Below, piece after piece: positions 2,551-51,219 of a stretch of 64,000 nucleotides of DNA. The stretch is taken from assembly GCA_051362555.1 (NCBI GenBank), contig CM120648.1:15248587-15312586 (forward strand), written 5' to 3'. The first letter of the stretch is position 1; every line of letters begins with the position of its first letter. Under the pieces are notes generated by a model that was not told the origin of the DNA, ran no database searches, and saw nothing but the letters and a program-made list of their open reading frames with translations. Source of the stretch: Lingula anatina (taxonomy: Eukaryota > Animalia > Brachiopoda). The translations under genes were made by a program, and so were the position numbers.

Positions 2551-3113
2551 ACTCGCCACTGTCATATTGCTTAAATAAAGAAACTTGAAAAAAATAAAAG
2601 TAACAAATTGTTAGTTTTGTGGTAACCTTTATTGTTCAAAATGACAGGGATCCATCACAATCGGCAGGGACCCATTGTTCAATATCATGTGCATCCTGTT
2701 GGACTCATAATATTTAAAGGTAAAATGATCACTGCTATGTAGCCACCTTTGTCTGTATTTTATTGTATATATTGTGACGATGTAGTGTGTTAGTTGAGAT
2801 TGTTTTATATTGCTACCGGTAGATGTCTCTATAAGTAAAGTGTTACCCGGTGTGCAAGTTTGAATCTCTCCCGTGATTGGTAACTTAAATGTAAAACTGC
2901 TCACTGTATAATTGGTTCTGATTGGTAAACGTGTACTATCTGAACTTGTATATAAGGTCCGAATTGAAATAAATCGCTCTCTTTGTTGGGACTTTTGGCT
3001 CTAGCCTCTGTGTTCTTGGCTCTTTTGGTCCTCTTTGCGGCTCTCTTTGGCTCTTTATGGCTCTTAACTCTGAGATACCAGTAAGTACATTGTTATTTGT
3101 ACCTTCATAAGGC

Positions 3114-5712: not shown

Positions 5713-5743
5713 ATAAGGCACTCGGCCGCGAAGGCGTAACAAT

Positions 5744-5762
5744 TGGCGCAGTCGACAGGATT
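5744..5762 (+). promoter_or_regulatory. Primer binding site of element 1 (tRNA-Ser-like)
   Basis: TGGCGCAGTCGACAGGATT 2 nt after the LTR end; close to the complement of a tRNA-Ser 3' end. Confidence 0.75.
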
Positions 5763-6195
5763 GAGTTTGTGTTGCTTATTAATTGACAGGATATTATTTT
5801 GTGAAGCTAACGTCATTAGAGGATACAATTTGTGTAGCATATGTTTTTAAATTGACAGAATTCAATTTGTGTAGCTAACGTGATCAGTTTACAGGATAGA
5901 ATTTGTGTAGCTTATGTAGTTAGCAGATATAATTAGTAGTTATTAGTGTTATTGGAATTTTTGAAAAGCTTTGTGTATGACTGAGTGAGAGTTGGAAAGA
6001 AAGTGACACGTGTTAGACAGGACTTGTTGCAAGACGCGAACTAGTCGGGACATATTGCAGTGATATTTCATTTTCATTGTTGTTTGATACTTGAGGCAAT
6101 TCAGTAAATATTTTCAAAGTAGTATTCATTTTAGTAGTTTAGAGATATTTGGTATTAATTTTCTGTTGTGATACTACAACTGCAGAGACATTGTG

Positions 6196-6264
6196 GACCA
6201 CGTGTACTGAGTAGTAGTCGGAAAGACCACGTGTACTGAGTAGTAGTCGGACAGACCACGTGTA
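6196..6264 (+). repeat. 29-bp tandem repeat (~2.4 copies) in the leader of element 1
   Basis: GACCACGTGTACTGAGTAGTAGTCGGA(A/C)A units start at 6196, 6225, 6254. Confidence 0.85.
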
Positions 6265-6723
6265 ATCACAGGCCCGTGCTTGTATACAGTGTAGAGCCTT
6301 GTGTAGTGATTAGAATACAGAACATAATTTAGTGAGTTTATTTACAAAGAAAAGCAGTTATTTAAAATAAAGGTTTCAAATTTGTGTTTTTCACTGACTT
6401 GCTGAATGAAGGAGTGAGTGTGAATTGTTTATTGTATATTTTTATCAATATTGCAATAGCATATATTGATAGAGTACTATTCTACCTTGTTCGTCTGTGT
6501 TGAAGGTGTTTTCATCATAGGTGTACATGTGAGTAGGTTGAATAGTGTGAGAGATTTTGTTTGTATTTACTGTGAAGTTTAGTAGTGGCTTTTTGCTGAA
6601 ACTTTCTTCAAACAGTAAAGTGTGGTAGTGGTGAAAGTATTTTATTGTGTAGGTTTTGTGGCACAGCTGCATTGCTATTATCAATAAAATTGTGTAATAG
6701 GTTGTGGGAAACTGGAAGTGAAA

Positions 6724-8777
6724 ATGGCGTCGGGTATTGTGGAAAGTAGTGTTGTGTTGAATGTGCAGACAGCATCTGAGACAGAATTGAAAAATTTAAA
6801 AGGAATTGGTCCAGTGAAAGCTCATAGATTGGTGTCTTTGAGAAATCAAAAAGGAAAATTGTTGTTGAGTGATTTGGAAGAAATTACTGGTATAAGTGTG
6901 GCAGATTGGCAGAAATGGGAAAAGAAGGGTATTGTGATTCTGGGTGTAATGGAAGAAAAAGATGAAGGTTCAAAAGTTGGAGATGAGAAAAAGGAAGAGA
7001 GTGTGAATTGGGAAGAAAAGTATAGAAAGTTGATGGAGCGAGTGAAGGTACAAAATGAAATGATATCAAATCTTCGAGATGAGGTTGAAGAAGCTGGTGA
7101 AAAGATAGAATTTTTATCTAGTGAATTGGAGATGAATGATGTTAAAGTGAAAAAGTTGGAAGTTGAAAATTCAGAAATGGTAATTGATTACAAAAAGTTG
7201 AAACAAGAGAGGAATGCTTTGGAAATGAAAAAAATGCATTGGAAGATGATAAATCTGTATGGGAAAATGAAAAGAGGGCATTGGAAAGAGAGAAATATGC
7301 TTTGAAAAATGAAAAGTATAGTTTAGAGAGTGAGAAGTGTGATTTGAAAATTGAAAATGATATGTTGAAAGAAAGAAATGTAAAAATTCAGAGCGAGTTG
7401 GGAAAAACTAAACAAGTGTTGATGAAAAAAGAAATGGAAATGGAGGAAGAGTGTAGAGAGTATTCCACAAAAGTAATGTTACATACTCAGGTTGAAACAC
7501 AGAATGAACTGTTGAGAAAACGTGTAGAAAATTTGCAAAAGTGTGAAATTGAAAAAATGGATTTGAAATTGCAATTGGATGAAATGACAGCGCGTCATGA
7601 TCATTTGCAAACTCAGTATGAAAGAATGAATTTACAACATGATTTAGAAAAAATCCCAAGACCAACTCCTAGAAATATTAAAAGTAGACCCACACCTGCA
7701 CCTAGAAGTAATAAAAAGAAAAGTTTGGAAACCCCTGTGAAAAAACCAATACTGAAAATAGAAGAGAGTGATAGTGAAAGCGAAAGTGAATCTGAATGTG
7801 AACAGAAAAGAGTCCCTTTAGTTGAAAGAGAAAAAGGACCTGTTCATAAAATGCCTAGTTTTAGTGGAAATGGAAGAGAAAATTGGGAAGCTTTTGTATT
7901 TAAGTTTAAAGGAATGGCAGAAAGATATGGATGGAATGATAAAAGAAAAACTAGCAGAATGATTGAATGTTTGGAAGACAGAGCTCTTGAGTACGCGGTG
8001 GAGTTTGGAAACTGCAAATATAAACGTTTGAAAGAAGTGATGTCAAAACGTTTTAGTATGAAAGAGTTTGCTTCATCTGCACGTAGAGCACTTCAATCAA
8101 TGAGACAGGGTGAAAGTGAATCTTTGCAAGATTTTTCTCATCGTGTGTTCATGGCATCTAGAGAGGGATATGCAGGTGGTGAGGGAATAGCTGTGGATTC
8201 ATTTTTGAGAGGGTGTCGTGACAAATAATCTGCAAAATTGGCTATGGATAAAGAGCCTAAAGATTTATTTGAAGTGTTAGAGTTTGTGAAAGTTGCAAAC
8301 AATAACTTCAAAGCAGTGTATGGTACAGGTGGCAGAAATGTGCATATTAGACAAGTTGGAATGTCTGATCAGAGTGTGGAGAATGGAAGTAATAACCAAT
8401 TACTCTACAATATGCAAAGAACCATGTCTGCTATGTGTGATCAGATGAAAAGAATGAATGATGCATGGGTGTCACCGTCAAATTCTCAGAGAAATTCTGG
8501 TAGAATGATAAAGTCACCACAGAATGGAAACGTAAATCAAAGTAGAGGGGGTCCACCACAATGTTTTAAATGTGGAGAAAGAGGTCATGTTCAAAGGGAT
8601 TGTAAAAATGAAATTGTAGAACATCCACCTAATCCCAATGTTAGTAAAAATGCCAGCCCAAGTTCTATTTACATTTGTCATAAATGTGGACAGAGAGGTC
8701 ACATTCAAACAAATTGCCCTCAAAATAGAGAAATGCCAAAGAATCCTCCTCCCGGTGCAAGAAATTCGGTAAACTAG
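6724..8777 (+). pseudogene. gag: Gag of element 1: HhH domain, coiled coil, capsid-like region, two CCHC knuckles; one frameshift (~7230) and one stop (8226)
   Basis: ORFs 6718-7305, 7239-8228, 8238-8777; MPSFSG..WEAF..KF and Q..GESLQDF capsid motifs; CFKCGERGHVQRDC and CHKCGQRGHIQTNC. Confidence 0.88.
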
Positions 8778-8833
8778 TACGGGACGAATTGACCGACCGG
8801 ATTTCGGATCCCTTATTTCATGTTGAAGGTCGG
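8768..8833 (+). promoter_or_regulatory. Putative -1 programmed ribosomal frameshift signal (slippery site plus pseudoknot)
   Basis: G_GTA_AAC directly before the gag stop; pol is in the -1 frame and open from here; 6-nt spacer; stem 1 8781-8788 with 8803-8812; stem 2 CCGACC 8793-8798 with GGTCGG 8828-8833. Confidence 0.65.
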
Positions 8834-11800
8834 ATTATGGATAGTGGAAATGTGAAAATGATGAATGTTGGAGATTTAGTGGGAGAAAATTTTGTGATTC
8901 CTGTTAGTGTAGGTGGTGTGAAAACATTAGCAGTTGTGGATACAGCAGCTCAATTTACTATTGTAAATAAAAGATTTTATAGTAAATTGCAGGGTGTGCC
9001 TGAGTTTTGCGAGACTCTGAAATTAATGCTTGCTGGAAAAAATGCATTTATGATGGGTCATAGAGTAGAAAATTTGAGTATTGAGATAGATGGGATAGAA
9101 TATAAGGAAAATGTGTATGTTGCAGATTTGCAAGAAGGAATTGATATGTTGTTGGGATTGAAGTTTTTGAAGGAGAGAAATTGTGTAGTGAATTTAGTTG
9201 ATCATACTTTGATCATTGGAGAAAAATGTGTGCAGGGAAGCATAGAAGGTGACTCTGATTTGAGTAAAGTGAATGGTGAGACAGAAGCTAAAAGTGATGA
9301 GAAATGTGTTGATGAATTAGAGAGAGAAGTTGAAATTTGTGAAAATATCATGAGAACGAAAAAGAGAATAGTAGTTCCTCCATTGACAGTGATGAGAATT
9401 TCTGTTTGTGCAGATTATGAGTTAGAGAAAAAGAAAGAGTATGTAACAGAACCTTGTGTTGATAGACAAGTGTTGGTATCTTGTGCATTAGTTAAAGGTG
9501 ATGATGTTGTTCCTGTAGAAATTGTGAATGATGGAGAAAGAAATGCCGTTTTGAAAGCAGGTAGTGTGTTAGGTGTTATTAAGGAAGTTGAGACAGTTGA
9601 TTCTGAAGTGAGATGTAAAGAATATGTAGATGGAAAAGCTAGGGTGTCTGCTGTGAATTAAGTTGAAATGAAGTTGAAAATAGATGAAAATATGGATAAA
9701 GAAGAAGTGATGAGAAGTTTGAAAAGAGATTTGCCTGAACATTTGCAAGATTTATTTGAAAGAACAAGTGAGGAGCTTGATTCAAATGAAATGGTTGCAT
9801 TGTGTGAAACTTTGAGAGATTATGAAGATGTATTTGCAAAGCATGATCTTGATTTAGGATGTATGAAAGGTGTTAAGCATACTATTAACACTGGTATTGC
9901 AGCTCCTGTGAAACAGAAATTGTGTAGAACTCCATTGGGAATGGAAGGAGAAGAGAGAAAGATGCTTGAAAAGTTGTTAGCTTCTGATATTATTCAGCCA
10001 TCAAATTCTGAATGGGCTTCCCCACCAGTATTGATAAGAAAGAAAGATGGGAGTGTTAGATGGTGTGTGGATTACGGGGAATTAAATAAGAAAACTATCA
10101 AAAATTCTTATCCTATTCCAAACATTGGTGATTGTTTAGATTGTCTGGCTGGAAATCAATTTTTGAGTTTGATTGATATGGCTCAAGGATATTTTCAAAT
10201 TGAGATTGATGAGAAAGATAGAAACAAAACTGCTTTTATCACCAGATATGGTCTGTATGAGCATAAGAGAATGGCTATGGGACTTACGAATTCTCCTGCA
10301 AGTTTTTCAAGAGCAATGCAGTGAGAGGTTTGACTTGGGAGAAAGTGTTAGTGTACCTGGATGATATCACAGTGTTGGGAAAGAATTTTGAAGATCATCT
10401 TAAGAATTTGAAAGAGGTTTTGGAGAGATTGCGTTCTTACAACTTGAAGTTAAAGCCTAAGAAATGTTTTCTTTTCCAAACAAAGTGTGAATTCTTAGGA
10501 AAGTCAATCAGTAGAAAAGGTGTTGGTATAACTGAAAGTAAGATTGAGTGTGTTAGAAAGTGGCCAGTACCTACAAACAAAAAGGAAGTTGAAACATTCC
10601 TTGGTTTCATAAATTATCATAGAGATCATATTCCTCAATTTGCTGAGAAAACTGCTTGTTTGTATGAGTTGACAGGGAATAAAAGTGTTTTCAATTGGTT
10701 AGATGAACATCATATAGCATTTGAAAGTTTAAAACAAGAGTTAACAACTGCCCCTTGTTTAGCCTTTCCTTTGTCTGAAGGTGAATTTATACTTGATACA
10801 GTATAGGAGCAGAACTTTCACAGATACAACATGGTGAAGAGAAGGTTATTGCTTATGGAAGTAAAATTATGTCACCTATACAGCGGCGTTATTGTACAAC
10901 TAGAAAAGAGCTCTTGGCTGTTGTAAACTTCTGTAGACAATATAGACATTATTTGTCGGGAAGAAAGTTCAGAATCCGAACAGATCATCATAGTTTAGTG
11001 TGGTTGTTAGGATTTAAAAACCCAGATGGTCAGTTAGCAAGATGGTTAGAAGAATTATCTCAGTATAATTTTACCACTGAACATAGACCAGGAAAGAAGC
11101 ATGGAAATGCAGATGCATTATCAAGAATACCTTTAGCTATGAAAGAGTGTGATTGCTATAAGGTGGGAGTGAAATTGAGTGACTTACCCTGTGGAGGATG
11201 TCATTATTGTCAGAGAGTACATAAAAATTGGTCAAGGTTTGAGACTGATGTGAATGATGTAATTCCTCTGGGAAATAAGAAATCAGATGACAATGTAATT
11301 GAATCGAATGCAGTTGGTGATATGAAGAATGAAACAAATTGTGAGAAATTGAGTTCAGTTTTGATGTGTCAGAGGGCTGATACAAATGAAAAAACTGACA
11401 AGAATGAAAGAGATGAATTATGCAATTGGTTGAAAGGATATGACTTGAAAAAATTGCAGAGAAAAGATGCAGATTTGAAAATAATCATAGGTTGGTTAGA
11501 GAATGGTGAACCTAAAGAATCAGAGTTGTATTTGTGTAGTATGGCAGTGAAAGGATTGTGGAATTGCAAAGAGCAATTGATTCTTTTGAATGATGTGTTA
11601 TATTACAAATGGGAAGAAAGAGAGGATAGAAATTTGTGTTTAATTGTACCAAAAGATTTGGTCAATGAAGTTTTATTTTTCTGTCATGATTCAAAAACAG
11701 CTGGTCATTTTGCTTATGAGAAAACTTTGCAAAAACTCAAACAATCATTCAAGTGGCATAGAATGAATAGAGATTGTAAATTGTATGCGAGTTCATGTGA

Positions 11801-12827
11801 ACTTTGCAATAAAAACAAGCATAGTACTGTTCGACCAAAAGCCAAAATGAAATTACATCATGCAGGATTTCCTATGGAAAAGGTTCATTTAGATATACTT
11901 GGACCATTTACACTAGGTGAATTTGGGAATTCTTATATTTTGGTGATGATAGATCAGTTTACTAAGTGGATAGAGTGTGTGGCATTGCCAAATCAGACAG
12001 CTGAATTAGTAGCAAAAGCATTTTTTGAAAAATTCATAGTTACTTTTGGTTGTCCACAAGAGATATATACAGATCAAGGTTCAAATTTTCAAAGTAGTCT
12101 ATTTAGAAATTTGTGTAGACTATTAGAAATCAAACAACTTAGAACAACTGGTTTTAGAGAAAGTGCTAATGGACAAGTTGAAAGATGCACGGGTATTATT
12201 ACACAGATGATTAGATGTAATGTAGAAGGGAATGTGAGATATTGGGATAGAGATTTACCTCAATTAGTTATGGCATTACATTCAACTGTGAATGCATCAA
12301 CAGGGTTTACTCCTAACATGATGATGTTAGGGAGAGAAGTTTTTATGCCATTGCACTTACTAACAGGTTGTGTGAATGAAAATTTGATACCATATGAGAC
12401 TCATGAATGGTTGAAAAACTTGAGTGACAGCCTAAATAGATCACATGAAATGGCTAGAGAAAAATTGAAATGTGTGCAGAAACGTCAAAAACAATTGTAC
12501 GATGCAAAGTTGAGAGAGAGTGAATATACTTGTGGTCATAAAGTATATTTGAGGGATGAAAGTCATAAAAAAGGAGAAAGTAAGAAACTTAGACCCTTAT
12601 ATAGAGGACCATATGAAGTTATCAAAGCATCCCCACCTCTCTATACAATTAAAGATAAAAAAGGAAAAATCCAAGTGGTACATCATGATAGATTGAGAAA
12701 ATTTGTTGAAAGAGGGAGTGATTTTCAATTGAATGAGCCACAATTGGTGGAACCAATTGTAAAAAGATCAAGATTTGGTAGACAAATTAAGATGCCATCT
12801 CATTTAAGAGATTTCGCCTTAGAATGA
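8768..12827 (+). pseudogene. pol: Pol of element 1 (protease, RT, RNase H, integrase); stop at 9659, frameshifts near 10320 and 10800
   Basis: VVDTAA protease; WASPPVL and YLDD in RT; FILDT / KELLAVV / TDH in RNase H; HDSKTAGH..CELC and D-D-E integrase; GPY motif. Confidence 0.93.
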
Positions 12828-12946
12828 TCATATTAATGTATAATTAGTTATTAGTTAAGGTATAGTTGTATATAAATACTTCCTTAATTTTCGGCAGTGC
12901 TGAAATAAAAGGAATTTAATTATTTGTATTTTTTTTTATTTAGGTG

Positions 12947-13239
12947 ATGGATGATACCAACATTAATAGAATTTTATTAGATGTAGAGATCAAATGGACA
13001 ACAGAATGGATTGAGAATCCCTCATCTTTGTTTCATATAGCACTACATAATTTATTACCAACTTCACTTTGTGAGGCAAGAACTCTAAACTACCTTGGAA
13101 ATCTATGGAATGAGAACATTCTGAAAGAAAAGGGGATGGATTTTATCATTGACAATATTCAGGTTTATAAACATGAGATATCAAATGAAGAAATGCTACA
13201 AATCATATTATTTTTGAGAGAGAAAATATATGGATATTA

Positions 13240-13240
<1 letters not shown>
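12947..13240 (+). CDS. Accessory ORF A of element 1, 97 aa, unknown function
   Basis: Intact ORF inside the element; poly-T tract and TAG acceptor end at 12943, just before the ATG. Confidence 0.5.
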
Positions 13241-13291
<51 letters not shown>

Positions 13292-13862
13292 AAATAAATA
13301 AATATAGTAGATAAAGTATATTATAGTTTGTACTTCCTATTATATTTCAGGTAATTTGATCAAAACAACAGTACAAGTTGGTATAGGTTTTCTAAATATT
13401 TGTTTGAATTTTGTTGTTGAGCATAATTCATTGAGCACTGCATGAATAGGTTGATAGCTACTTTTGTCTTTTTTGGATTATGGTTATTAAAAAAAAAAAA
13501 AAAAATTAAATATTACCTAACATGGTTACATTGTTCAAACTAATATGTTGCAGTTTAGCATGTGTTTTGCATGTAATCGGATTATAGGTTGTCAAGGTAA
13601 CAATTCTTTTCTTATTACACATTTTAATGATGGTATTTTACTTGGGGATTTGGTATAAAAGTAATATTTGTACATAGTAAATGCGGCGATGCTGTAATAC
13701 TGTGTTAGTAATTAATGAAATACTATGTTTATGCTGTAATACTATGTTAATAATGTAAAATTATGTTTATAATGTAATATGTTAATATTCATTTGAAAGA
13801 AAAGATCATTATCATGTATGTTCATTCAAGAAAATAAACCATTGTATAAGTTTATTTCAGAT

Positions 13863-14528
13863 ATGGATTTAGACATGCTAGATGAAGCTTGTTTTGTCCC
13901 GGATTATGATGACACTGATTTGGTGGAAGATCCTACTGTCCTAATTGGTGAAGAGGGGGAGGAAGTTACCCACTCAAAGTGCAGAAGGAAGAAACAGAGG
14001 AAAGAAGTCCAGTGTGGTTTGTGTCTGGTGTCCAGTGCTGACCTAAGTAGACATCTTGGACGTCATGTGAAATCTGTTCATTTGCCATGGTATATGACTC
14101 CAGGATTGGTGTGCTGGTATTGCAGATCGATGGAAAAGGACAATTCGCTTTTACGTTAACATCATGGTGATGTTCATTCGTGTGGAACTGGTGAATTCGA
14201 GGAAAAACTGTGGATCCAATTAGTGAATGGATTTTTGTATTTCCTGATATTGACATTAAATATGAGAAATATATGGGAACTGATGGACTATGTGAAAAGT
14301 GAAGGACTAGTAATGTTGCCAGATAACCGTTCCAAGGAGGACATTAACTTTGTGAAAATATACATTTATGGAAATGATATGGAGCCTAAGACTGAGATTC
14401 TGATTTCTTTGTTGACTTTGTTTCACTGGAGAACTTTGTATCATCTGTTACAAAAACTTTCATCAGAGGATCGTGAACTCAGTAGTTATTGGTATCGGCG
14501 GATGGAATTTACTTTGCTACATGGATGA
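13863..14528 (+). pseudogene. Accessory ORF B of element 1: acidic N-terminus, CxxC..H-x4-HLPWY..CxxC Zn-binding region, helical domain; one in-frame stop (14157)
   Basis: ORFs 13818-14159 and 14223-14528 share a frame; TTTATTTCAG acceptor ends at 13860, ATG at 13863. Confidence 0.65.
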
Positions 14529-14890
14529 AAAATGAACTATATAATGATTTGACATTTCACATTGACATTGTTATCATTACTAATGTTGTTTTGAGCAACT
14601 TTTGAGTTAAAATCACTTTGTTTACTTTTAAAGTTGATTTAAAGAGATAATGGATTTAAAACTGTTTTGCATTCCTAAGGATGGACATTTATGCTGAGAG
14701 ATGGACTTGATTGACTTTGCTTGTGTTAAAGTTAAATGTTGAATCTTGGCATAACAAGAATGACTTATTTGCTTTACTTGCTTATTTTAAATGTAAAATA
14801 CGATTTCAGTTGTTGAATTATAATAATTGTTAGTTAAGAAATTTAAATTAATGGTTTATATTGTAATGATAGGGGGGAGTTTTGTTCGTC

Positions 14891-14904
14891 AAAAGGGAGG
14901 AGAG
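14891..14904 (+). promoter_or_regulatory. Polypurine tract of element 1
   Basis: AAAAGGGAGGAGAG abuts the 3' LTR. Confidence 0.85.
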
Positions 14905-15265
14905 TGTGACGATGTAGTGTGTTAGTTGAGATTGTTTTATATTGCTACCGGTAGATGTCTAGAAGTAAAGTGTTACCCGGTGTGCAAGTTTGAATCTCTC
15001 CCGTGATTGGTAACTTAAAGGTAAAACTGCTCACTGTATAATTGGTTCTGATTGGTAAACGTGTACTATCTGAACTTGTATATAAGGTCCGAATTGAAAT
15101 AAATCGCTCTCTTTGTTGGGACTTTTGGCTCTAGCCTCTGTGTTCTTGGCTCTTTTGGTCCTCTTTGCGGCTCTCTTTGGCTCTTTATGGCTCTTAACTC
15201 TGAGATACCAGTAAGTACATTGTTATTTGTACCTTCATAAGGCACTCGGCCGCGAAGGCGTAACA
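14905..15265 (+). repeat. 3' LTR of element 1
   Basis: TGTGACG...CGTAACA; about two substitutions and one 2-bp indel versus the 5' LTR by eye. Confidence 0.95.
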
Positions 15266-22853: not shown

Positions 22854-24352
22854 CATTCATAGTGGTTTAATGTATTCAAAGAATGTGCACTGTTGACAAG
22901 AGCAGTAAACCATCCATAGATAGATTATCACTGAATAAATGGTGTAACTAACTACTGAATGAACAGACTATCACTCTGGTGATGCTGTTAGTATTTAGAA
23001 CAGCTAACATCAGTCTGATCGAAGCTGGAGGTCAGTAATTCTGTTAATATTTTTTCATGTTCAAACACGTATTAAACTTTATTGTGGGGAAAACTTATCC
23101 CATTTTGCCTTTCTTTTAATATAAGTGGGGGGAATATTGTAATTTAAGCATTTTCCTTCCTTCACCTGGTCTGCTCTTCATGTGAAAAGAGTGAAAAGAA
23201 AGGAACACTGTAGGTGAGTTAAAACAAGCCAGGTGGGGAGGTCACACCCCCTGCAGACCATAATCATCATGATATTATTATGAACTTTATCTAAGATTCT
23301 GAGCTCTAAGAAGAAACCTCTAGAAAGGATACTAAAGAGGAAGCAAACTCACAGCAATCGCACTCACACTCAATAAGTAGAACCAGTAGATGCTTTAGTA
23401 TGTATTCATATCATTTCCCATTTAACTTTATCAGAAAGTTTAAATGTCACTGAAGGGACTTAAGAAATAGTTACTTTTTACCAAAATATTGAAACAAACG
23501 ATTAAGAAACACTTTTATTCCATACAGCTTATACACGTACCAATGAACTATGTTCGTGAACTTTTCAGCTTTTTAAGGAATGATGAATGTTTTTTATTCA
23601 AAGTTTTTTTCCATTTCCTTTCAATATTTATTTTAAAAGTAAACTCGTTACCTAATCCCATTTCAATACTGTAACTTACATTTTATATATACATTTAATG
23701 TATGTTTTTATATATTGTAAAGAAGCACAATAAACCCGTATCATTATAATAATTATTGTTGTTGTTGTGATCGAAGATTTTTCTTTCCTCAACCTGGTAT
23801 GCTCTTCACGTGCCAAGACAGGCCAACAGGTAAGTCAGGTCAGGCCAATGATCGTCATTATGAAATCAACACCTATCATTGTCTTATATCTTAAACTCCG
23901 AGGCGGACGTGTGCAAGACAATTGCAAGCAATCTAAACAAGTCTACAATAGCAATAACCACAGTGATCACTCTCCAACGCAGTGTTGTCGGTTGTGGACT
24001 ATAAAAATGAAAACTGCAGTGCCACCTACAGTTCAGTATCAAATTAGTAGCGAAAGATTCAACATCACTCACTCCGCTACGAGACATCAGGCATACCCTT
24101 TATATCTAGTTCGCATTCCCTGACCCATACAACATCTATACTGTACTTAATCATACCAGTGTAGCTGACATTCAGCATTAGTGCCAGAGTAGATTTTGAT
24201 CAAGGAGCTATTAATTTGTGAAGAAGTATCAGGGTAAATAAAAGTGAAAAAAGATGAGTTGTCTATGCCCCTGAACACAGCGTAGCAAATGCTACTAGAC
24301 TGCAGCTACCACAAGAATAAGTGAATTTAGCTGCTCGGGTTCACTTCATCAG

Positions 24353-24569
24353 TATAGTGCCAACGGGTATGTTTATGTCTCGATCTGGAAAGGCAGATCA
24401 CGTGAGAGGACTGAGAACGAGACTGAGAGCCAGATTATATGCCAGACTTCTATATGAAGAGACGTGCAATTCCATACACTAAGAAAGTGACAAATTGGTA
24501 CAAGCTAAAGAGCTTTAAAGGTAAGAAACTATACTATTACCTTAAGTAGAATCCAAAGGGAATTCTATA
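24353..24569 (+). repeat. 5' LTR of element 2
   Basis: TATAGTGCC...AATTCTATA, direct repeat of 27250-27466. Confidence 0.92.
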
Positions 24570-24570
24570 T

Positions 24571-24590
24571 TGTCGACAAGGATGAGATTC
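24571..24590 (+). promoter_or_regulatory. Degenerate primer binding site, tRNA-Ser(GCU)-like
   Basis: TGTCGACAAGGATGAGATTC versus expected TGGCGACGAGGATGGGATTC (3 mismatches), 1 nt after the LTR. Confidence 0.65.
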
Positions 24591-24643
24591 ACATTCCATT
24601 GCCTGCTAAACAGGGACCCAGTTCTGAATCTACTAGCCTGGAA

Positions 24644-26411
24644 ATGTCAAAGGACATCAGGCTCAAGGATGACCCCACCATAACTCATCAAAGGGTGATT
24701 ATGGGTGAAGAAATGGAAATTGACTCTGATGAAGAGGAAGCATTATTATCCGGAGTAACGCCTCCAGGAAGTACAAAATCAGAATGATCAACTGGTGCAG
24801 CAAAATTAACTTCAGAGATTAAAGAATCTCAGAAGTCAGATATTCAAATGGAAGTAGAGGCAGGGCACTCAAAGGAGTTGCCTTCTCATAAATATAAAGT
24901 GCCTATATATGAGCCCAGACGTGGTATGGTATCAAAGGAAAGGAAATCAACAGAAGAGAAAAAAGAATCATATAGGGAGAGGAAAGGCTCTCCTTATCAT
25001 AAAGAATGGAAAAAACAGAGAAGTTGTTCATCCTCACCTAGGAGATAAGAGTATGGGCCAGGCCGGGGAGGTTATTATCAAGGAAGAAAGGTAACACATA
25101 GTTCACCAGCTGCGAAAGCGCCGCTTCCAGATAGAACAAGAGGATGTTTGCTGTCCTGGTGCAAAGGCCCAGATACAGCTGATCATGCATTTGAATGTCA
25201 TCTGCCTTTAATTTTCCATCCTATGTTAAGAGGATCGGAGATTAATACACAAAGAATGGCTGCCCTGCAAACAATAACTCGCAGGATAATGGGGGTCCGT
25301 AAAGACGTACCTGACTTAAGCACATTGGCTTTCATAAGAAATTCTGAGGAAAGCCTCATTTCTGGAGAGAAAGAAGCCAGGGAAGAGTTTAAGCAGCACC
25401 TGGGCGTATCTGAGGAAAGCCTCACATTACGTCTTTTGAATAGGAAAGTGTTGTTGGATCTCTTTTCCATGATTAATAAAGACATTCAGGAACAGCTTAA
25501 ACAGCTGTTTGAACCTGAAGAAGAAGAGATAAGGAAATTGTCCCAAACTCCAGAGGCATTTGATGCTCATTGCCATCTGGATCGAGCTCAGAAATTCCTA
25601 AAATTACCTTTAGAGGCTGGGCTACAAGAAATAATTGGGGCTGTTCCAGTAGATAGCTGCAGGGTTAAAAAGAAAGGGTTTACTGCAGTATATTGTGATC
25701 CTGAATCGTACCCAAGTTCTGATATATGCAAAGGCATTCAGGAAATTGGAGGAGTGGTTGCTGTAGGCATGCATCCTAAACATCAAGTGAAAAGTGAAGA
25801 ATGGGCCAGTTTCTAAATGGTTGTGGCTCAGCCAGAAGTGGCTGCATTAGGAGAAATTGGATTTGACATGACTTGTAAAGTCTGGAAGTGGGATGAGCAA
25901 CTTCAAAACTTAGAAATTGCTCTATCCTTTCAAGTTTCTTCAACCAGGAAAAGTCCTGGTACTACATGGCCATGGATTAAGGAATTCAAATGAAGCCGAT
26001 GATGCAGCATGGAGAATTATTCTAAATGTTCTTTGTGTGGTGCCAGCTGTGGGTCGGGAAAGGCTGATCCATTGCCATTGCTTCCTTGGATCCATGGACC
26101 TAATGAGGTCATGGTTAAAACACTTTCCGAATACTTATTTCGGAATAGCCGGAGCAGTACATCAGTTCAAAAGTGATACTGGATCTACTGCCTACAAGAC
26201 AGTGCATAGCATGCCACTAAATAGACTGCTACTGGAGACAGACAGCCCATACTTTTCAAGAGAAGTTGAGGCTGCATCTACACCTCCTCATATAGGACAA
26301 GTAGCAGAGGCAGTGTCTGTGATCAAAGGACAATCATGGAAAGAAATATTAGCAAAGGCTAGTAAAAATGCTTACTGCCTATATGTAGAGCGGTTGGCAC
26401 CAGAGATATAA
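24644..26411 (+). pseudogene. tatD: Disordered N-terminus + C-x4-C..H-x4-HLP Zn motif + helical domain + TatD-family DNase; 3 in-frame stops, 1 frameshift (~25930)
   Basis: One frame from 24599 to ~25930 with stops at 24785, 25046, 25814; TatD motifs in order: FDAHCHLD, VGMHP, ALGEIGFD, VLH, HCF, FGIAG, RLLLETDSPY. Confidence 0.9.
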
Positions 26412-27235
26412 ACTGAATGTTTGTCAGGCCAGACTTAGTGCGACCTGTCCCGTGATAGCGGCAGGGGTATGAGTGATACTACTGACTGCGAGTGCTACAT
26501 ACACAGACTGTGGAAAGTATATTCCTAGAAAGGTGAGGAATTACCTTTTCTTTAAGAGTTACGAAAAACAACTCCATAAAATATGATGACAGTAAATCCT
26601 CCTTCTCTTCATCATTATTGAAACTGTCCTCATGTTCATTGTGGAAAGTTTTTCATAAGCCCAGTTCAATTCTTGTAATTTCCTTGAGCTGGCCTCTTTA
26701 TCATCTGGATTGTTATCTAAGATACTACAATGCCAGCCTTTTATAAGCCTGCTTGATTTCTACTTTAAGGATGTGGTATTATTATCCTTTCCTATTCGTC
26801 TTTCTTCCTTTTGGGAAAGGGAATATTAATCATCCCTATCATGTTCTCTTATTTGCTGCTCTATCTTTATTTGTAGTAATTGATGTAGACATGGATTGGA
26901 TTTATGCATCCAAAGGGATGTATAGATTCAAATGGGAATCAGATTTTAACTCTAGGAATTTCTTGAGCAGTATTTCTCTTCACCTTCCTATGAGTTTCTC
27001 CTAATGTGATTTAGATTACTATCTAGTTATTATTTTATTATTATTATTTAATTTATTATATTAAGCTGTTGTTTCAATTTCACTTTCTTGTTGGTGAGTT
27101 TATCTTTACATCTTCTAGGTTTTTAGATCTTTTCTGAAGTCACTTCTTTTGTTGTAAAGATGTATAAGATTTCCCCCCTCTATATTTTTATCTAATGGAC
27201 AAGATAAATTGTTATGGGATAAGCCTTTTTTGGAT

Positions 27236-27249
27236 AAAGAGGGGAAGAG
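27236..27249 (+). promoter_or_regulatory. Polypurine tract of element 2
   Basis: AAAGAGGGGAAGAG abuts the 3' LTR. Confidence 0.85.
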
Positions 27250-27466
27250 TGTAGTGCCAATGGGTATGTTTATGTCTCGATCTGGAAAGGCAGATCACGT
27301 GAGAGGACTGAGAACGAGACTGAGAGCCAGATTATATGCCGGACTTCTATATGAAGAGACGTGCAATTCCATACACTAAGAAAGTGACAAATTGGTACAA
27401 GCTAAAGAGCTTTAAAGGTAAGAAACTATACTATTACCTAAAGTAGAATCCAAAGGGAATTCTATA
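27250..27466 (+). repeat. 3' LTR of element 2
   Basis: TGTAGTGCC...AATTCTATA. Confidence 0.92.
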
Positions 27467-27645
27467 TCAGTAAATAAAACCAGTGAAAACTTTATTATTA
27501 TTTAATATTATAAATCAAACTTCAAAATTCACTTTTCAAATACTTGCCTTACTGAACATATTCCGTTAAATTTTTTATTGGGGTCAACTATGCCTGTGAT
27601 AGTTAATTATAAACAATAAATTGGAGCAACTGTGCTCCAAACCAC

Positions 27646-28088
27646 AGCCGCGAAGTGGAATCCACCACAAAAATGGCGACCTTGACCTGATTACTACCTC
27701 CAAGAGTGTATCGCCAGAGTTTTGAAAAAAAAAACATCTTTCTGGTGCAGAAGTGAGTTAATTTTTCCTATGAAGAACTGCAATGCAATCTCAAAAAGGT
27801 CTGCTATTCATACCTAGAGGTCTATTTTGGTCCATTTTTACCTTTTTAAAGGGATCCTTTAAAACATAGAAATGGAGAGAAATGGATAGAAATGGACTGA
27901 AATGGGCCGAAATGGACCGAAATGGACGCATGGCAAACCTCTATGAGATCGCACTTGGGTTTTGCATAGTAAAAATAAACTTACTTTTATACCAGAAAGA
28001 AGTTTTATTGAATTTTCTGGTGATACACCCTTCGAGGTAGTAATCGGGTCAAGGTCGCCATTTTCAAGGTGGATTCCACAACGAGGCT
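27646..28088. mobile_element. MITE with long imperfect TIRs and an internal 10-bp GAAATGGACC-type array
   Basis: Left arm GTGGAATCCACC..AAAATGGCGACCTTGACC is mirrored at the right end; a second copy is at 37967-38212. Confidence 0.7.
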
Positions 28089-29253
28089 CTATTTTAAAAC
28101 ACAGTTGCTTGTATCAAAAGTCCAATTAGATAATTTAAACTGCAAACCTTTGACTTAAGTAACCAGAACCAAAGAAAGCTACAATAATGTGTGCAACATG
28201 ATAATATATATTTATTTATTTTTTTTTTTTTTTTGCGAATTGTCAGCAGGGAGGGGACTAATAGTCTAAGTTAAATAATGAAATTTCTGGATTATATATA
28301 ATTAGGAATAAATATATATCCTTATATATCCTTAACCGAAAGAGTTAAAGGATGTGGAACTTGCAGTGTATTTTATTATAAACCAGTTTGAAACTGTTGA
28401 TCTCTATAGCATAGGGCATGTCCATTGCCATATCTGTAAGTTTTCTGTATTTTTCTGTTAGTGTTGTGAAATGGGTGAAGAGTGAAAAAAATTTCAGGTA
28501 AGAAAAGTGATGTTTCTTTAACGCTGAGACCAGGACTTCAGATTGCCAGTGAACCATTACAGTTATTAATAACCAGTTAACGATCTCTGCTAGCTGGTAG
28601 AGATAATGATAAAAATGTGACAAGTGAGTAGTTATGTCACTGACAGGTAAGTCAGACTTACATTCTTTATTTAATTAAGTGCAAATTGATTTGGCTACTA
28701 TTCCTTTTGGCTTCTGTGAGCTTGTGGAGTTAACACCTCATTAATTAATCACCACTATCAGATCAGGTCCTATGATAAGATATTTGTATCTTTACCAATT
28801 TTTTTCATTGAACAGATCCATTCTATCAAGTGTTCATTTTGGCAAAAAAAAAAAAAAAAAAATTTACATTCTCACCAATAGTTAATGAATCCATCCCAAC
28901 ATCAAAGGTTTTTTTTTTTTTTTTTTTTTGTAACAATTTTTAAACAGATTATCATTAATAACAGAGCCATCAATGAGGAGGTCATGTGGTCTGATGGCAA
29001 GCACAGATTTCAAGCTAATTATCATAACGATCCTTTTGGCGTTTAAAAAGAATTTATTATATTTTCATTTACAGTGTATTTATTGTGAAATATGAATCTT
29101 ATACAAAGAACTATTCCCCCTCAATTTACCATGACCAATCAAAGTGTGCCTGACTCTCAGAAAGTATTTAAAACCCAGCTGTAGAGAAGGCATTAGTTCA
29201 GTTTCTTTATGAACCCTTGCATATAGAGTTCTAAGATACAACCAAGTATTAAT

Positions 29254-30681: not shown

Positions 30682-33600
30682 GTGTGTGTCCATGATAAGA
30701 CCAGTCAGAGGGTGGCAAGGTGGGGGTCAACAGATTTCAACCAAATTCATAATATTGTTGCATATATAGGAGATATTAAGATTGAAGGCAACAATCCCAA
30801 AAGAAATCATTGGATATAATTATAATATGATATTATATGTTTTGGCCATTTTTGGCTTGATTTTCAGCTTCGGTCAATAAAGCCACTTCATAAGCAAATA
30901 TTTCAAAACTGATGACTTTTTAAAATTAATTGAAAATTTACCTATTTAAACCAGCCATTTGCCATTGAGAATATGTTACTAAATTTCAGTTTAACCCACA
31001 AACTAACGAGCCACGCCCATTTTTATGACCCCACCCCCCAAACTCACTTTTCTACCAAGCAATGTTCAAACATTCATATCTCTCTTTTTGCAGGCTTGAC
31101 AGCCATAAAATTTTATAGGGATCCTAAGCATATATTGGTCTAATCATACAAAATTCAAAAAGTGTGTTAAACACAACAGAAGACATTGAAAAAGTGCCTC
31201 AAACTTTAGCAGAAAACCAAACGGCCGAAATCAAGATATCAGTACATTTTGAGATAATACCTTCCAATAATCAAGTTTAATCAAAGACTCACAGCCAGGA
31301 ATTCAAACTATGCTTTGATAAGGGCAAATCTATCCAATTTTTATAAATACAAAATGGCTGCCATCAAATCTGTCCCAAAATACAGTTACCCTAATTCCTC
31401 AAAATAATCAAGAGGCCCATTTTTGCAGGTTTTTTATTTTGAGATCTGTAATACAGGATTGCTCAAATAATATTCTTTTCAAACAGAGCCATACAACTTC
31501 TGAATAAATTTAAATTACTAGTGACAAGTTATCCCCCCCCCCCCCCCCAATTTAATAAGTTATTACTGTGCATATCCAGTGTCATCAGCATTGTGTATAT
31601 ACCTTATTTTCAGGGAGCAATAGAGAAAAAAAATTACAAATGATTTTTCTAAAGGTAAAAGGGAATGACTGTCTCATTTTATCAGTTTTCTCAAGTGCAA
31701 CACTAATTAATCCACTTGTAATGATTTATATTGCATTTTTCAACCATTCTTTTTCCTTTCAAATGATTCATAGGCTTTGTAAATACATGTGATATCTTGA
31801 TATCTATATTCTTTTTCTATAAAGAAAATTAAAACAGAGTCAGCAACATACAATGACAGGAGGAGTACTTTATTTTCATATCATCAATTGGACAGTAAAA
31901 GAACAAAGCAGTTACTTTTTACAGGAGTGAAATCAAGTTATGAATCTCCAAGGTTCCAATATCATGGTCATCTTTTCTATATACTGAACACAACAGTGAT
32001 GGGTAGTGTTCAACAGATTTTAATCTTATAACTGATTGATCCCCAAGTTTCTTCTTCTGGTTGAGAGATCCAGGGTCTCCTACAGTAATGATAATTCAGC
32101 AATCTTAGAATAAGTGTGGTAACTTGAAGCAACATGCCACTATAGTTTAGTGTGACTGAACTGTCAATTGTCAATATTTGTCAATTCAATGGCGCCAATC
32201 CTCCTTTCCTACAAAACTGAGTGAGATTGCCAAGCCTAAGATGCATATTTGTTATGGGGGATTGTCCCAAGGTGGCTCTAAGTCCAATAAAGGTTTGCCA
32301 GGATATCCACTACTGCGTCTACCTGAAGATGGCAGGACAGGCTGTCAAAAGAAAAAGTATTAAACATATTTTAAACTCATGTTAATTGCTGTATAAGAAC
32401 AATTATTAAATAATATTCTGATCAAACATATTGCATAAGTGTAAAAAAGGAAATCAAATATGCATGATTGTAGCTACCAGAATTTCATGATAGAAAAAGA
32501 AACAAATGAAAAAAAGGTAAACCTTTTTTCTTCTATGTGGAAGTGTTCCAGGCATTACAAAGTTGGTGCTCACATCTGAATCTGATGAATTGGCCTGTGC
32601 AATTTCAGGTGACTTTTCTATTATTGTCTGTAAGATTGTCCAGGTCAAGGTTCACATACAGGCCTAGGATGTAAAATCTGAAAAATAAACATAACATCAA
32701 TAAATGCTTTACAACAACAGAGGCTTACTGTGTTCAGAATAGAAACTATCATAGCAGGATCAATCTATCTCAGCGGAGTATCACACTCGGGCTCAGTCGT
32801 TGTAATCAGCTTAATTGTCTGGCACGCCCCCTTGCAAAGCAACATGAACAACATAATGGACTGCAAAGTTTTCCTGATTTTACTAAAGTACCTTTAGTTA
32901 CAAGTGTCCTGTGTAATATGTAAGTCTTGAAAACTGAAGCACAGTTGTGTTACAAAGTCACATAATTATAGCTAGGCGGTTAACTTCAACTTCATTGTAA
33001 ACACACATGAATCTGCATAGTGAATATAAAACTAAAATATAAAAAACTGGCACAAGTAACATCCCCTAAAATGCCAAAACTTGAAACTGAATGTGTGTTA
33101 CATACATACATGTTTACCATGAAACAGAAATCAAGTAAAACTCTGTGAATTGAAATATACCAGTATGTCTTTTAAATTTGCTTATATTCTTTATAATACT
33201 GAATAATATTCAAACTTATTATTTAAAATGGTTTGACTTTTTAGTGTATCTGATTCTAGTATATGTATGTCACCACTGATCACTTACCTTACAACAAACA
33301 TCCAGAGCTAAATCGATGAGATGGATATATTGAGGAACCCAAGCCTGACAACAGTCTGAAGTGGTTCAACCAAAAAATGCACATTCTAAGGACGACCAGC
33401 TGCTATGGTCATTTCTTGTTATATTCTGGTGCACACCAATCATTCTGAGATGTACCTAAGCATCTCTAGTGTGTGTTCTTCATAAATTTAAGAAAGTATT
33501 ATGTTTTAACACTGTGAAGACGATGTGTTTTGCTCTACAGTCACGCTCGGCTGTCACCTTGATTGGATAGTAAACGGTTGTCGTAAAATCGCTAAAAGAT

Positions 33601-35067
33601 ATTAAAACCCGGTGCATAAACTTGAAAACCACCTAGGACAACCTTAGACTGCCACATTAATCCAATACAATGCAAAAATAAACTATAACAAGTGGTTAAA
33701 GCCTTCAAACCGAATGTCGTAAAGTCCCCATATACCTCCATAGAGACAATAAAATATCGCATTGTCCAATGGCATGGCTTATTTTTCGTAAGCCCGGTGT
33801 ACGGTGACCTCTGCGGTTACGTCATTTTCTGAATTGGATTGTAGAGAGGACTAATTCAAACATCAGAGATGGAATTTGGATATACGGTTTGATTGTGCGT
33901 ATGCCATGCACGGAATTTACAAACGAGCGACGGGATGATGTAGCCTGCAGTATTAGCGGTAAGCGTGCCAAGTTTTAGGCCGCTCCGATGCCCGGCAGTA
34001 TTTTATTTCGATTATTATGTTGGAACTGGATTTATCTTGTTTCAGAAGCTTACTATATTTTATTGTCTCTATGGAGGTATATGGGGACTTTACGACATTC
34101 GGTTTGAAGGCTTTAACCACTTGTTATAGTTTATTTTTGCATTGTATTGGATTAATGTGGCAGTCTAAGGTTGTCCTAGGTGGTTTTCAAGTTTATGCAC
34201 CGGGTTTTAATATCTTTTAGCGATTTTACGACAACCGTTTACTATCCAATCAAGGTGACAGCCGAGCGTGTCTACAGTTGCTCCGGTGATAATCCTAGTA
34301 CCCGCCATGTTGAATATAGGTCACAGAGTTAGCATCGTTATTTTACATTTAGTTTCTACAACATAAACAAATTTAAAAAATGCATTTTCGCTTCATAAGT
34401 TCGTCTGCAGGGCAAACATATTTATTTTAAGGGCTTTTCACAAACCTATACATGGTTTTGACCTTTTAATTTAGTTGAAGAAACAGTTTAGCATTTAAGT
34501 AGTATAAAAATTTTCGTTTTTAGGCCCTTTTTAAAATTGTTATAGTTCTTATTTTACAAGGTTTAACACAGATTTTATTTTACAAAATTTATTTTTCAGC
34601 CCTTTTCTATCAGCACATACCAAAATTATATGGATACAACCTGCAAAAAAGAAGTTTTGTGCATTTAAAGAAGGGGAGGGGGTCAAACATACGGAAAACA
34701 TGCCATATTAGAATCAACCTTGTGTGGTCATGACAGTGCCTTTTCAAAAAATCTGTACTGGGTATTAAAGGTCTTTCCTTAACCTATCATGTGGCTTACC
34801 TAAATAATTCCTTATGATGTACATGATTTTTTAAAAGAATATTTAAAATTATTACTTTTCAAGAGCTAAAATATGCTATATTTTGGCAAAATTGCCAATA
34901 AAAGATCTGCCCCCATATCTCTAAAACTAATGATCCAAAATAAGAAAGCCAGTGGCTCACAATATCTTTTATGTTGATGGTTTACCACACCAAAAATTAT
35001 TAAAATCTGCTGACCCCCACCTTGCCGCCTTCTGACTGATCTGTCTGGCTTTCTCATGGACACGCTC
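30682..35067. mobile_element. Non-autonomous DNA transposon with TTAA TSD, Sola3-like
   Basis: ~55-65 bp imperfect TIRs (GTGTCCATGA...GGCAAGGTGGGGGTCA.CAGATTT); TTAA at 30678-30681 and 35068-35071; right end CTC. Confidence 0.75.
33542..34270. mobile_element. Young MITE with 216-bp TIRs and 8-bp TSD, nested in the Sola3-like element
   Basis: 33542-33757 is the reverse complement of 34055-34270 (no mismatch seen); TCTACAGT on both sides. Confidence 0.92.
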
Positions 35068-44870: not shown

Positions 44871-46173
44871 TCAAGTGTTATCTTCCAAGTGCACCCTTTC
44901 ATGTCTGTTTAAAGCATCTCTACGAGCAAATAACACTTCACAGTAATTACACTTGTATGGTTTCTCTCCAGTGTGAAGTCTTTCATGAATCACCATGGTT
45001 CTTTTTTCTATAAAAGATTTTTCACAGAACTGACAATGAAACACTTTATCTCCTCGGTGAATCCTTTCATGGTTTTTGCAGTGACTTTTTTCTATAAAAG
45101 CTTTCCCACAGAACACACATTTGTAGGGCTGCTCTCCAGTGTGAATCTTTTCATGTCTGTTGCAGGTTGGTAATTGGGCAAAAGTTTTCTCACAGAACTT
45201 GCACTTATATGGCTTCTCTCCAGTGTGAACTCGTTCATGCTGAACACAGGCGAATTTCTTTGTGAAGGCTTTGCAACAAAATTGACACTTGAAAGGTTTT
45301 TCGCTAACGTGAATCATTTCATGCATTTTAAGCTTTGAAGAATTAGGAAAACCCTTTCCACAGAAACATGTATATGGTCTCTCTCCCCTGTGAATTTTTT
45401 CATGTGTTACACAACGGTTTAAGCGAGAAAATTCTTTGCCACAATGCTGGCAAATAAACACCCTATTTGGTCTAGGTTTACAACTACTGTCTTTATCAAT
45501 GTCTATGTTTTGTTTTTTATTTGTTCTTTTGCACTTCTTGCACTGGTACACTTCCTGCAAATCTCTAAACCAAGGAGAGGACTTACAAGTCTTTCCGCAA
45601 GTCTGGCAGCAAATGGAAGTTTTTTCCTTACAGTTGTTGGGTTTATTTTGGCCATCATTATTTTGGCTGCCAGTTTTCATGCTTCGTTTACGTGTGTCCC
45701 TTATAATTCTCTTCACATCTTTGGCAGTCTTGTCTTCATGTTGTTCACAATGAGGAAGTTGTGGCCTCGAGTTAATCACTTTCACATTATTGGTATTGTC
45801 TTGATCTGTGGTAGGCTGCCCTCTGGTGTCAGCTATGTCTTCACTGGTAGAATCTTCTTCACCTGAATTGTGCTGACACCTGGTGACAGAAGTGTTGTCA
45901 TTGGTAGGATCTTCTTCATTTGATTTGTGCTGACATCTGGTGTCACTAGCGTCGCAATCTGTAGGATCATCTTGCCCTAATGCATTCTGCCCTTGAATGG
46001 ATGCTCGCTCTTCATCGCTTCTGCCCTCAAGCTCAAAAATACGCACATACATGTATATGGTCTCACTAGTGTCTTGATTGGCAAGATGATCTGATGACTT
46101 CTGTCCTTTAGTGGTAGCAATGTCCTGATCAATGGAAATCCCACATGACATTTGCTGCCCTCTGGTGTCCAGC
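44871..46173 (-). CDS. C2H2 zinc-finger gene, last coding exon (seven tandem fingers)
   Basis: Seven C2H2 fingers with TGEKPY-type linkers; acceptor TTTTGTCTAG at 46174; TGA at 44871; AATAAA just downstream. Confidence 0.92.
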
Positions 46174-46420
46174 CTAGACAAAATACCCACTTGTTTAAGT
46201 TTTAACTATTTCAAATATTACAAAATAACTATGTACCAGCACATGTAAATTTATGTAATTAGAATCTATTTTCCAATGAACTGTGAGAAAACAAAGCTTT
46301 TTTACATTGTAACAATGTTATAGTTGATGTGGTTGTAGCAGCTGGAAAAGCAGAAAATGTTCACTTGTAAAAAAATGAATGTTATCACATTCTGATGACT
46401 GAATATAAAATTCTCCTCAC

Positions 46421-46579: not shown

Positions 46580-46727
46580 TGTTGCATATTATAATGTAAT
46601 TAACATATCTCCCATAATGCATTGTTTTTTCTCTACCAGTTAGCCAGCATGGCTGGATGTGTTATGTAATAAATGAGTTATTAAAAAAATGTTAACTTGA
46701 GTTACATAACAACAGAAAACTACGACA
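46580..46727 (+). repeat. 5' LTR of element 3
   Basis: TGTTGCAT...TACGACA, identical to 51072-51219. Confidence 0.96.
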
Positions 46728-46745
46728 TGGTGTCAGAATCGGGAT
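46728..46745 (+). promoter_or_regulatory. Primer binding site of element 3 (tRNA-Leu-like)
   Basis: TGGTGTCAGAATCGGGAT directly after the LTR. Confidence 0.8.
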
Positions 46746-46838
46746 CTACATTGGATGTAGCATAATTTGGAGATTGGATGACCCACAAACTACAAGATAA
46801 AAACGGATTTAGAATCACTAAAAAAAAAGAAAAAAAAA

Positions 46839-50765: not shown

Positions 50766-51071
50766 ATAAATTCAGTAATAGTGACTGTAACAAGTCAGTT
50801 GTGAAAGTGTCACAAATTGACTGTAATTTGAATAAGCTTAATCATAATTGTTTCATTTATGAACTCTGGACTTGAGATTCTGTTGACTTTTGTGTTAAAA
50901 CAAACAAACAAAAAAAAACATTTACATGTGCCTATGAACTGTGAACATTGAAATGTCTTGGAGACAAAGACAACACGGACAGTGAACTGATTATGTTTAT
51001 TAGCAACTTAAAAAAAAAAAAAAAATATTTCCAGGATTTATTTTTATTAAAAAAAAAAAAAAAAAGGGAGA

Positions 51072-51219
51072 TGTTGCATATTATAATGTAATTAACATAT
51101 CTCCCATAATGCATTGTTTTTTCTCTACCAGTTAGCCAGCATGGCTGGATGTGTTATGTAATAAATGAGTTATTAAAAAAATGTTAACTTGAGTTACATA
51201 ACAACAGAAAACTACGACA
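51072..51219 (+). repeat. 3' LTR of element 3
   Basis: Identical to the 5' LTR; preceded by the PPT. Confidence 0.96.

Follow-up and report, generated by a model that had tools for sequence, protein, structure and literature searches.

The window analysed here is a stretch of 64,000 nucleotides from the brachiopod Lingula anatina (assembly GCA_051362555.1, contig CM120648.1, positions 15,248,587 to 15,312,586; positions below are counted from its first letter). It contains a 3114-bp unit (24353-27466) bounded by long terminal repeats (LTRs), whose main gene encodes a predicted zinc-finger-TatD nuclease. The original prediction, made from the letters of the window, described the unit as a satellite that is mobilised in trans and spreads this nuclease. 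Our analysis indicated that the unit is probably a Gypsy retrotransposon copy with an internal deletion, in which the zinc-finger-TatD gene is the third gene (open reading frame 3, ORF3); this copy would have been born short, integrated and then decayed. The features of the unit are as follows.

24349..24352, plus strand: left copy of the target-site duplication, TCAG (LTR flank and empty-site joint)
24353..24569, plus strand: 5' LTR, 217 bp, ends TA
24571..24588, plus strand: primer-binding site, one T past the LTR; 11 of 13 letters equal the site in the gag-bearing loci L007 and L010
24584..24595, plus strand: deletion junction (domain A profile and comparison with ten relatives)
24644..26411, plus strand: 5'-truncated, broken ORF3 of about 590 codons (stops, frameshift and TatD matches)
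25130..25555, plus strand: domain C, a C2H2-type finger (C-x4/5-C...H-x4-H-L-P) with a helical domain (family profile, independent E 6e-18)
25550..26390, plus strand: TatD domain of group II by its HxH motif; none of the six metal-site positions is lost
26540..26778, minus strand: decayed antisense J-domain gene fragment (J helices 26628-26778, frameshift at the HPD position)
27236..27249, plus strand: polypurine tract
27250..27466, plus strand: 3' LTR, 217 bp, TG...TA
27467..27470, plus strand: right copy of the target-site duplication, TCAG

Structure of the unit and its broken ORF3

The two LTRs differ at 4 sites (Kimura two-parameter distance 0.019). Their termini are TG...TA, not TG...CA, and the 5' LTR opens with TA through one substitution. 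Copies and empty sites were sought in four DNA runs of the same species, using contigs aligned to the region. In three of the four runs, contigs connect position 24347 to 27466; this joint omits 3118 bases, corresponding to the 3114-bp element plus the 4-bp duplication. The empty-site joint indicated that the element boundaries and the target-site duplication are genuine, and that the unit is a true insertion, missing from some haplotypes. All parts of the predicted LTR unit (LTRs, TCAG duplication, purine tract and primer-like site) were thus recovered, and six-frame translation and Pfam searches detected neither gag nor pol between the LTRs, as had been claimed. The primer is presumably tRNA-Ser; no tRNA gene for a primer comparison was found in the 64-kb window. 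The element sits inside a multi-copy repeat (24144-24346 and 27625-28109), beside a fold-back repeat.

The frame of about 590 codons, originally described as single, intronless and broken by three stops and one frameshift, is present but not whole. Its three stops (24785, 25046 and 25814) and single frameshift (near 25928-25934) were confirmed at their positions, and contigs of other copies without the frameshift were found in all 4 DNA runs. Both halves of the frame match Pfam TatD_DNase (E 1.9e-8 and 3.8e-16), and the frame retains all six metal-site positions of a group II TatD together with the four finger ligands, in agreement with the TatD domain that had been predicted. The N-terminal part is what is missing: only positions 91-117 of the 117-position profile of domain A, the N-terminal domain of the family, match the window (24596-24679). 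About 88 positions are gone from a domain that is filled in 44 of the 47 relatives of at least 600 residues. Comparison with ten relatives placed the first ORF3-like codons at the 3' end of the primer site. By this comparison gag, pol, the ORF3 splice acceptor, the start codon and about 88 ORF3 codons appear to be absent from this copy. A single-sequence model of the window protein was uninformative (pLDDT, predicted local distance difference test, 37). A word-index protein search with the C-terminal piece recovered one distant TatD and the same search with the N-terminal piece recovered no relative; Atlas searches gave no usable match, and viral-contig scans found no relative.

The zinc-finger-TatD gene as ORF3 of a Gypsy clade

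A full HMMER scan recovered 277 relatives at E 0.001 or better, and the relatives described here were taken from the best 150 of these matches. Among the matches listed, the closest named relatives are L. anatina entries, with 41% and 35% identity. Nine of the 30 clusters examined have names: four are from L. anatina and one is from Pecten maximus, two belong to Candidatus Thiodiazotropha bins and two are labelled 'TatD DNase family protein'. The 47 relatives of at least 600 residues have four parts in common: domain A (helical, N-terminal, about 115 residues), a long disordered stretch, domain C and TatD. Domain C consists of a C2H2-type finger and a helical domain, and the four ligands of the finger are invariant in 66 of 66 relatives, which bears out the zinc finger of the original prediction. 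Domains A and C match no Pfam family. The TatD domain was assigned to group II because of its HxH motif, following the available part of PMC10085689, and 116 sequences retain every one of its six metal-site residues, out of the 127 (of 136 family rows) that have letters at all of these positions.

The predicted structure of P0004, an L. anatina protein and the closest relative of the window gene, was confident for domains A, C and TatD (mean pLDDT 72.7). Its barrel superposed on YcfH (6l25) with a Z score of 29.1 and a root-mean-square deviation of 2.7 over 249 residues, and fold searches were dominated by TatD barrel matches. The best solved match of the family profile was E. coli YcfH (E 1.9e-36), with TATDN3 (4e-15) and TATDN1 (1.8e-12) far below; TATDN2 was absent from the 17 solved matches. 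Bacterial TatD proteins of solved structure show 21-24% identity.

Two scans yielded 69 related loci, 58 of which have domain C and TatD. Upstream context was counted in the 26 of these 58 loci with at least 2.2 kb of upstream sequence, the 32 shorter loci being left out. Gag or pol lies upstream on the same strand in 24 of the 26, the C-terminal part of integrase in 23, and the order protease-reverse transcriptase-RNase H-integrase was found wherever the locus is long enough. The two exceptions are L039, with pol on the opposite strand, and L050. In a tree of 142 TatD domains (142 rows without host TATDN1-3; quick maximum-likelihood search, midpoint root), the window sequence clusters with P0004 and P0005, both from L. 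anatina (SH-aLRT 99), and this group lies among pol-linked rows. In agreement with the original prediction, the TatD gene belongs to mobile elements and is probably not a one-off copy of an ordinary gene. P0155 contains the full P0004 sequence after an rve integrase core, and through it the linkage of integrase to a TatD ORF3 is seen in the genus Lingula itself. The gag-bearing loci L007 and L010 match the window unit in their TG...TA ends, the single T behind the LTR and the primer core. Collectively, these sequence comparisons indicated that the TatD gene is the regular ORF3 of a Gypsy clade widespread in marine invertebrates. The outcome that the original prediction had set against itself, gag-pol in every other copy, is largely what the relatives display, a result that covers sequences other than the diverged copies in this species.

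A distant TatD branch (L035, L038, L042, L046 and L047; SH-aLRT 95) lies outside the main clade, and two of its members sit behind pol.

For 13 of 19 ORF3 start codons, an acceptor-like site was found no more than 15 nt away; for other ATGs the figure was 69 of 2679 (a usable start was lacking in 6 of 25 loci, and there were two pairs of near-copies). These sites indicated that ORF3 is likely expressed from a spliced message, and by analogy the ORF3 of intact parents would likely be made as env is in retroviruses.

Gypsy elements with TatD genes were also found in bacterial bins of Sedimenticola and Ca. Thiodiazotropha (L059-L069; P0008, P0018 and P0160). Because they contain Gypsy gag-pol, we infer that these contigs, filed in symbiont bins, are host-animal DNA. 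The symbiont-bin entries named 'TatD family hydrolase' are therefore likely transposon genes in animal DNA. Likewise, LOC106170426 and LOC106158303 of L. anatina and LOC117320398 of P. maximus, which are entered as uncharacterised genes of the host, are likely transposon genes.

Group II TatD proteins have two-metal 3'-5' exonuclease and AP (apurinic/apyrimidinic) endonuclease activities (available part of PMC10085689), and TATDN2 strips the RNA strand of R-loops (available part of PMC10711561). The ORF3 protein shares the HxH motif and the other metal-site residues with YcfH, YjjV, TATDN2 and TATDN3. Unlike cellular group II TatD genes, it is encoded in an intronless mobile element and fused to two domains outside Pfam. 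The CDP/HCF pattern is presumably common to ORF3 and TATDN2. In intact parents, ORF3 is likely maintained by selection as a predicted active two-metal nuclease. Its foremost candidate job, which we put forward tentatively, would be the trimming or clearing of RNA:DNA hybrids and single-stranded by-products that the element itself produces; action against host defence by small RNAs or DNA sensing ranks next and seems rather unlikely.

Origin, copies and decay of the short form

A second short form was found in three of the four DNA runs, with position 24583 connected to 25042 and five letters common to both sides. This junction again lies at the primer end, and its landing site follows a pyrimidine-rich TAG. 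The two junctions at the primer end pointed to reverse transcription. During this process, plus-strand strong-stop DNA terminates with the primer site (available part of PMC9278108). We therefore hypothesize that strong-stop DNA ending with the copied primer site would jump to a short match in ORF3 on the unfinished minus strand, with loss of gag, pol and the front of ORF3. The short DNA would then be integrated by the enzymes of the parent, and the integrated copy would decay afterwards. A mis-spliced ORF3 message, with a donor at the primer end, may instead have produced the short form, as this route is also compatible with the junctions. A normally spliced ORF3 message was rejected as the source, since it would retain the start codon and domain A.

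Strand-transfer errors are reported to cause large deletions within one round of retroviral reverse transcription (Pulsinelli and Temin 1991). Junctions of such deletions tend to cluster at the primer end. The unit resembles retroviral strand-transfer deletions in being provirus-like, with two LTRs and a large internal deletion; it differs in that the process is deduced here from two junctions in an invertebrate Gypsy element.

The short form quite likely arose before integration, and the claim that the unit had integrated in its present form is to this extent probable, given the breakpoint at the primer end. The alternative is a full-length insertion that later lost gag-pol through ordinary chromosomal deletion. 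The empty-site joint gives no timing for the interior loss, and large provirus deletions made by the host have been reported (available part of bioRxiv 10.64898/2026.03.31.715508). However, the breakpoint lies within a few bases of the primer end, the second form does likewise, the insertion is missing from some haplotypes and the LTRs differ by merely 1.9%; such a later deletion is accordingly most improbable.

Once integrated, the short form seems rather likely not to have multiplied further. In run X1, contigs identical to this copy have a depth of 49-52 compared with 50-54 for the flanks, depth being a weak guide to copy number. By contig depth no identical sister copy was seen, and no junction-crossing contig of another copy was found among the contigs listed.

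Several observations weigh against a copy that was born short from an intact parent and did not move again. In run X1, 137 contigs aligned to the region, of which 109 are less than 99% alike, indicating many diverged copies. The three stops exceed the 0.6-0.8 expected from the LTR age (P 0.035-0.067, with a date that rests on 4 LTR differences), and this excess fits a gene that died before insertion and an element that had already moved non-autonomously. The second junction is defined by its two sides, of 24-36 letters with 80% likeness, and not by the letters between them, and this form could stem from the short form instead of the parent. The evidence consists of DNA-run contigs and relatives, in which no full-length parent and no 5' ends of sister copies were seen. 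In addition, other short forms retain ORF3. In another organism, L050 (3225-5943) has an ORF3 between two LTRs in a unit of about 2.7 kb that lacks gag, pol and domain A; its frame is broken, its LTRs are 87% alike and its target duplication is not readable. L001 (933-6318) encodes an intact gag, protease, an integrase tail with an SH3 domain and a PHD finger, and an intact TatD ORF3 of 755 codons; reverse transcriptase, RNase H and the integrase core are absent, and the contig ends overlap. Short forms thus recur in the clade.

These points would agree with a non-autonomous family, in which the short form arose once and was moved repeatedly in trans by a gag-pol parent with the truncated TatD gene as passive baggage. 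All parts needed in cis are present, many copies are 90-99% alike and several cover the TatD end and the J fragment, the second short form begins at the same primer end and L050 has an equal layout. Yet the identical contigs stand at flank depth, none of the contigs listed for other copies bridges the junction and the primer core has 2 mismatches in 13 letters to relatives, which leaves such a family doubtful.

The coding state of the gene was assessed on a sample of 27 in-frame, stop-free differences drawn from the 40 listed out of 683. Where every other copy disagrees with this one (12 differences), 8 change the residue. By contrast, all 8 listed differences of one diverged copy, in the region just behind the methionine codon at 24644, are silent; 4 of the remaining 7 change the residue. 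The substitutions specific to this copy look neutral, and the silent pattern in the diverged copy together with the 8 of 12 here indicated that the gene is selected in the family and drifting in this copy.

The RNA depths come from about 6% of each run. Over the TatD frame the depth does not exceed 5.3, and in three of the four runs the reads lie solely in the orientation of the J-fragment reads; no sense transcript of the frame was seen in these runs, whose library orientation is uncalibrated. Among the indexed runs, none was listed as an RNA holder.

These data bear directly on a satellite without gag-pol in which selection favours the spread of a working TatD nuclease, with translation starting at the methionine at 24644. 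Domain C and TatD are whole past the junction, with this in-frame methionine behind it, and all ligands are present; the diverged copy is silent at all 8 sites just behind the methionine, and L001 has an intact ORF3 without reverse transcriptase. However, relatives have other residues at the position of this methionine, which lies inside a 33-codon out-of-frame upstream frame starting at 24582. Domain A is cut away, autonomous copies would be expected to show the silent pattern just as well, the scant RNA has first mates oriented like the J reads in three runs (uncalibrated), and the L050 frame is likewise broken. The nuclease-spreading satellite of the original prediction was mostly not supported by these results: the gene is the ORF3 of gag-pol elements and has lost its start codon, its acceptor and most of domain A, the substitutions of this copy are mostly residue-changing and its contigs stay at flank depth. 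We regard this explanation as the least probable of those considered.

The TatD gene is also not the single cargo that had been described, as a broken J-domain was found on the minus strand at 26628-26778. Two adjacent minus-strand pieces match only Pfam DnaJ (profile positions 15-28 and 31-54, with E 0.059 and 0.098, neither of which reaches the cut-off), and the same pieces match solved DnaJ domains. A frameshift-aware score against E. coli DnaJ reached 85, compared with 31.6 +/- 4.9 and a maximum of 45 for shuffled sequences (n=60). The fragment came to light with these short pieces and was overlooked when whole antisense frames were scanned against Pfam. No intact HPD in an open frame was found: a stop and a frameshift occur there, and the main frame has 19 stops in 258 codons. 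None of the 69 related loci, which come from other organisms, gave a J-domain match with an E of 1 or lower.

RNA reads pile up at 26540-26700 in two of the four runs, with a mean depth in the top bin of 195 and 207. The abundant transcript is about 89% like the element over 26540-26675 (15 listed differences in about 135 bases), has an extra stretch and is unlike the element beyond 26540. If the libraries read like most stranded ones, this transcript runs in the J direction. All 4 DNA runs show raised depth in the J-fragment bin, and other copies have contigs that extend from the TatD end into the fragment. The fragment is likely a piece of a host J-protein mRNA, captured antisense by the family before its copies split and no longer coding.

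A wider proposal would be that TatD-retaining, gag-pol-less units form a recurring, self-renewing satellite class of marine invertebrates, shed at the primer site by the clade and moved in trans, some of them, such as L001, selected for an active nuclease and gaining antisense pieces of host mRNA. We consider this improbable. In our preferred reading, this copy is genuine but no longer alive, and arose by deletion from a Gypsy variant that is apparently undescribed.

Known systems and neighbouring elements

In the Juno and Vesta LTR retrotransposons of bdelloid rotifers, ORF3 encodes a DEDDy 3'-5' exonuclease or a GDSL esterase (main text of PMC5408684). The clade described here resembles them in having an enzymatic, non-env third frame behind pol, from a 3'-5' exonuclease family, the function of the rotifer ORF3s being untested. 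Juno and Vesta also have derivatives that lost parts of gag-pol and retain ORF3 (TelKA2n; main text of PMC5408684). Unlike in the rotifer elements, the enzyme is a TatD TIM barrel, not a DEDDy exonuclease, and has an extra helical N-terminal domain and a C2H2-type finger. The main text of PMC5408684 contains none of the words TatD, DnaJ and Lingula.

Terminal-repeat retrotransposons in miniature (TRIMs) and other non-autonomous LTR elements such as Helenus and Ajax have interior deletion as a described origin (main text of PMC10886601). Like them, the unit has two LTRs, a primer site, a purine tract and no mobility genes, and its duplication is of 4 bp as in animal Helenus. According to the same text, TRIMs are shorter than 1 kb with no coding interior, whereas the unit has 3114 bp and a frame of 590 codons, comprising most of ORF3, and contains a captured fragment; repeated movement was not seen. 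'TatD' is absent from the main texts of PMC10886601, PMC12440569 and PMC10294476. A search of the literature outside Repbase, supplements and most subscription journals, where such annotation may exist, found no description of TatD or of a captured DnaJ in LTR elements.

The single copy is a dead remnant, and the clade that it exposed matters more. This clade has kept, as a Gypsy ORF3, a TatD domain whose ligands are conserved, together with a splice acceptor of its own and two partner domains that are uncharacterised, in hosts that include a brachiopod, a scallop and animals with sulfur-oxidising symbionts. It offers a directly testable case for the role of enzymatic ORF3s in retrotransposons.

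Neighbouring gag-pol elements in the window were considered as partners and rejected, as they have other LTRs and primer sites. A Gypsy element at 2773-15265 encodes HHH-gag, protease, reverse transcriptase, RNase H and integrase in broken frames, and its integrase is 45% like that of P0155. Its ORF3 (13863-14528) matches the domain C profile (independent E 7e-4 in a window-only search) without TatD, and by sequence the element appears to be a TatD-less branch of the same ORF3 kind. A BLASTP comparison of the window domain C with this neighbouring ORF3 gave no significant match, the family profile alone connecting them. The first 50 codons of this ORF3 (13863-14010) are 92% like the first exon of the L. 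anatina von Willebrand D model LOC106172586, either because the host gene captured an exon or as an artefact of annotation. The 5' LTR of the same Gypsy is split by a 2.6-kb element (3114-5716) that has terminal inverted repeats and a 7-8-bp duplication.

A second, very young compact Gypsy lies at 46580-51219, with identical 148-bp LTRs, a single gag-pol frame of 1327 codons and a different primer site. It is adjoined by an intronless C2H2 zinc-finger array of 444 codons on the minus strand (44871-46205). A further unit at 33539-34273 has perfect inverted arms of 219 bp.

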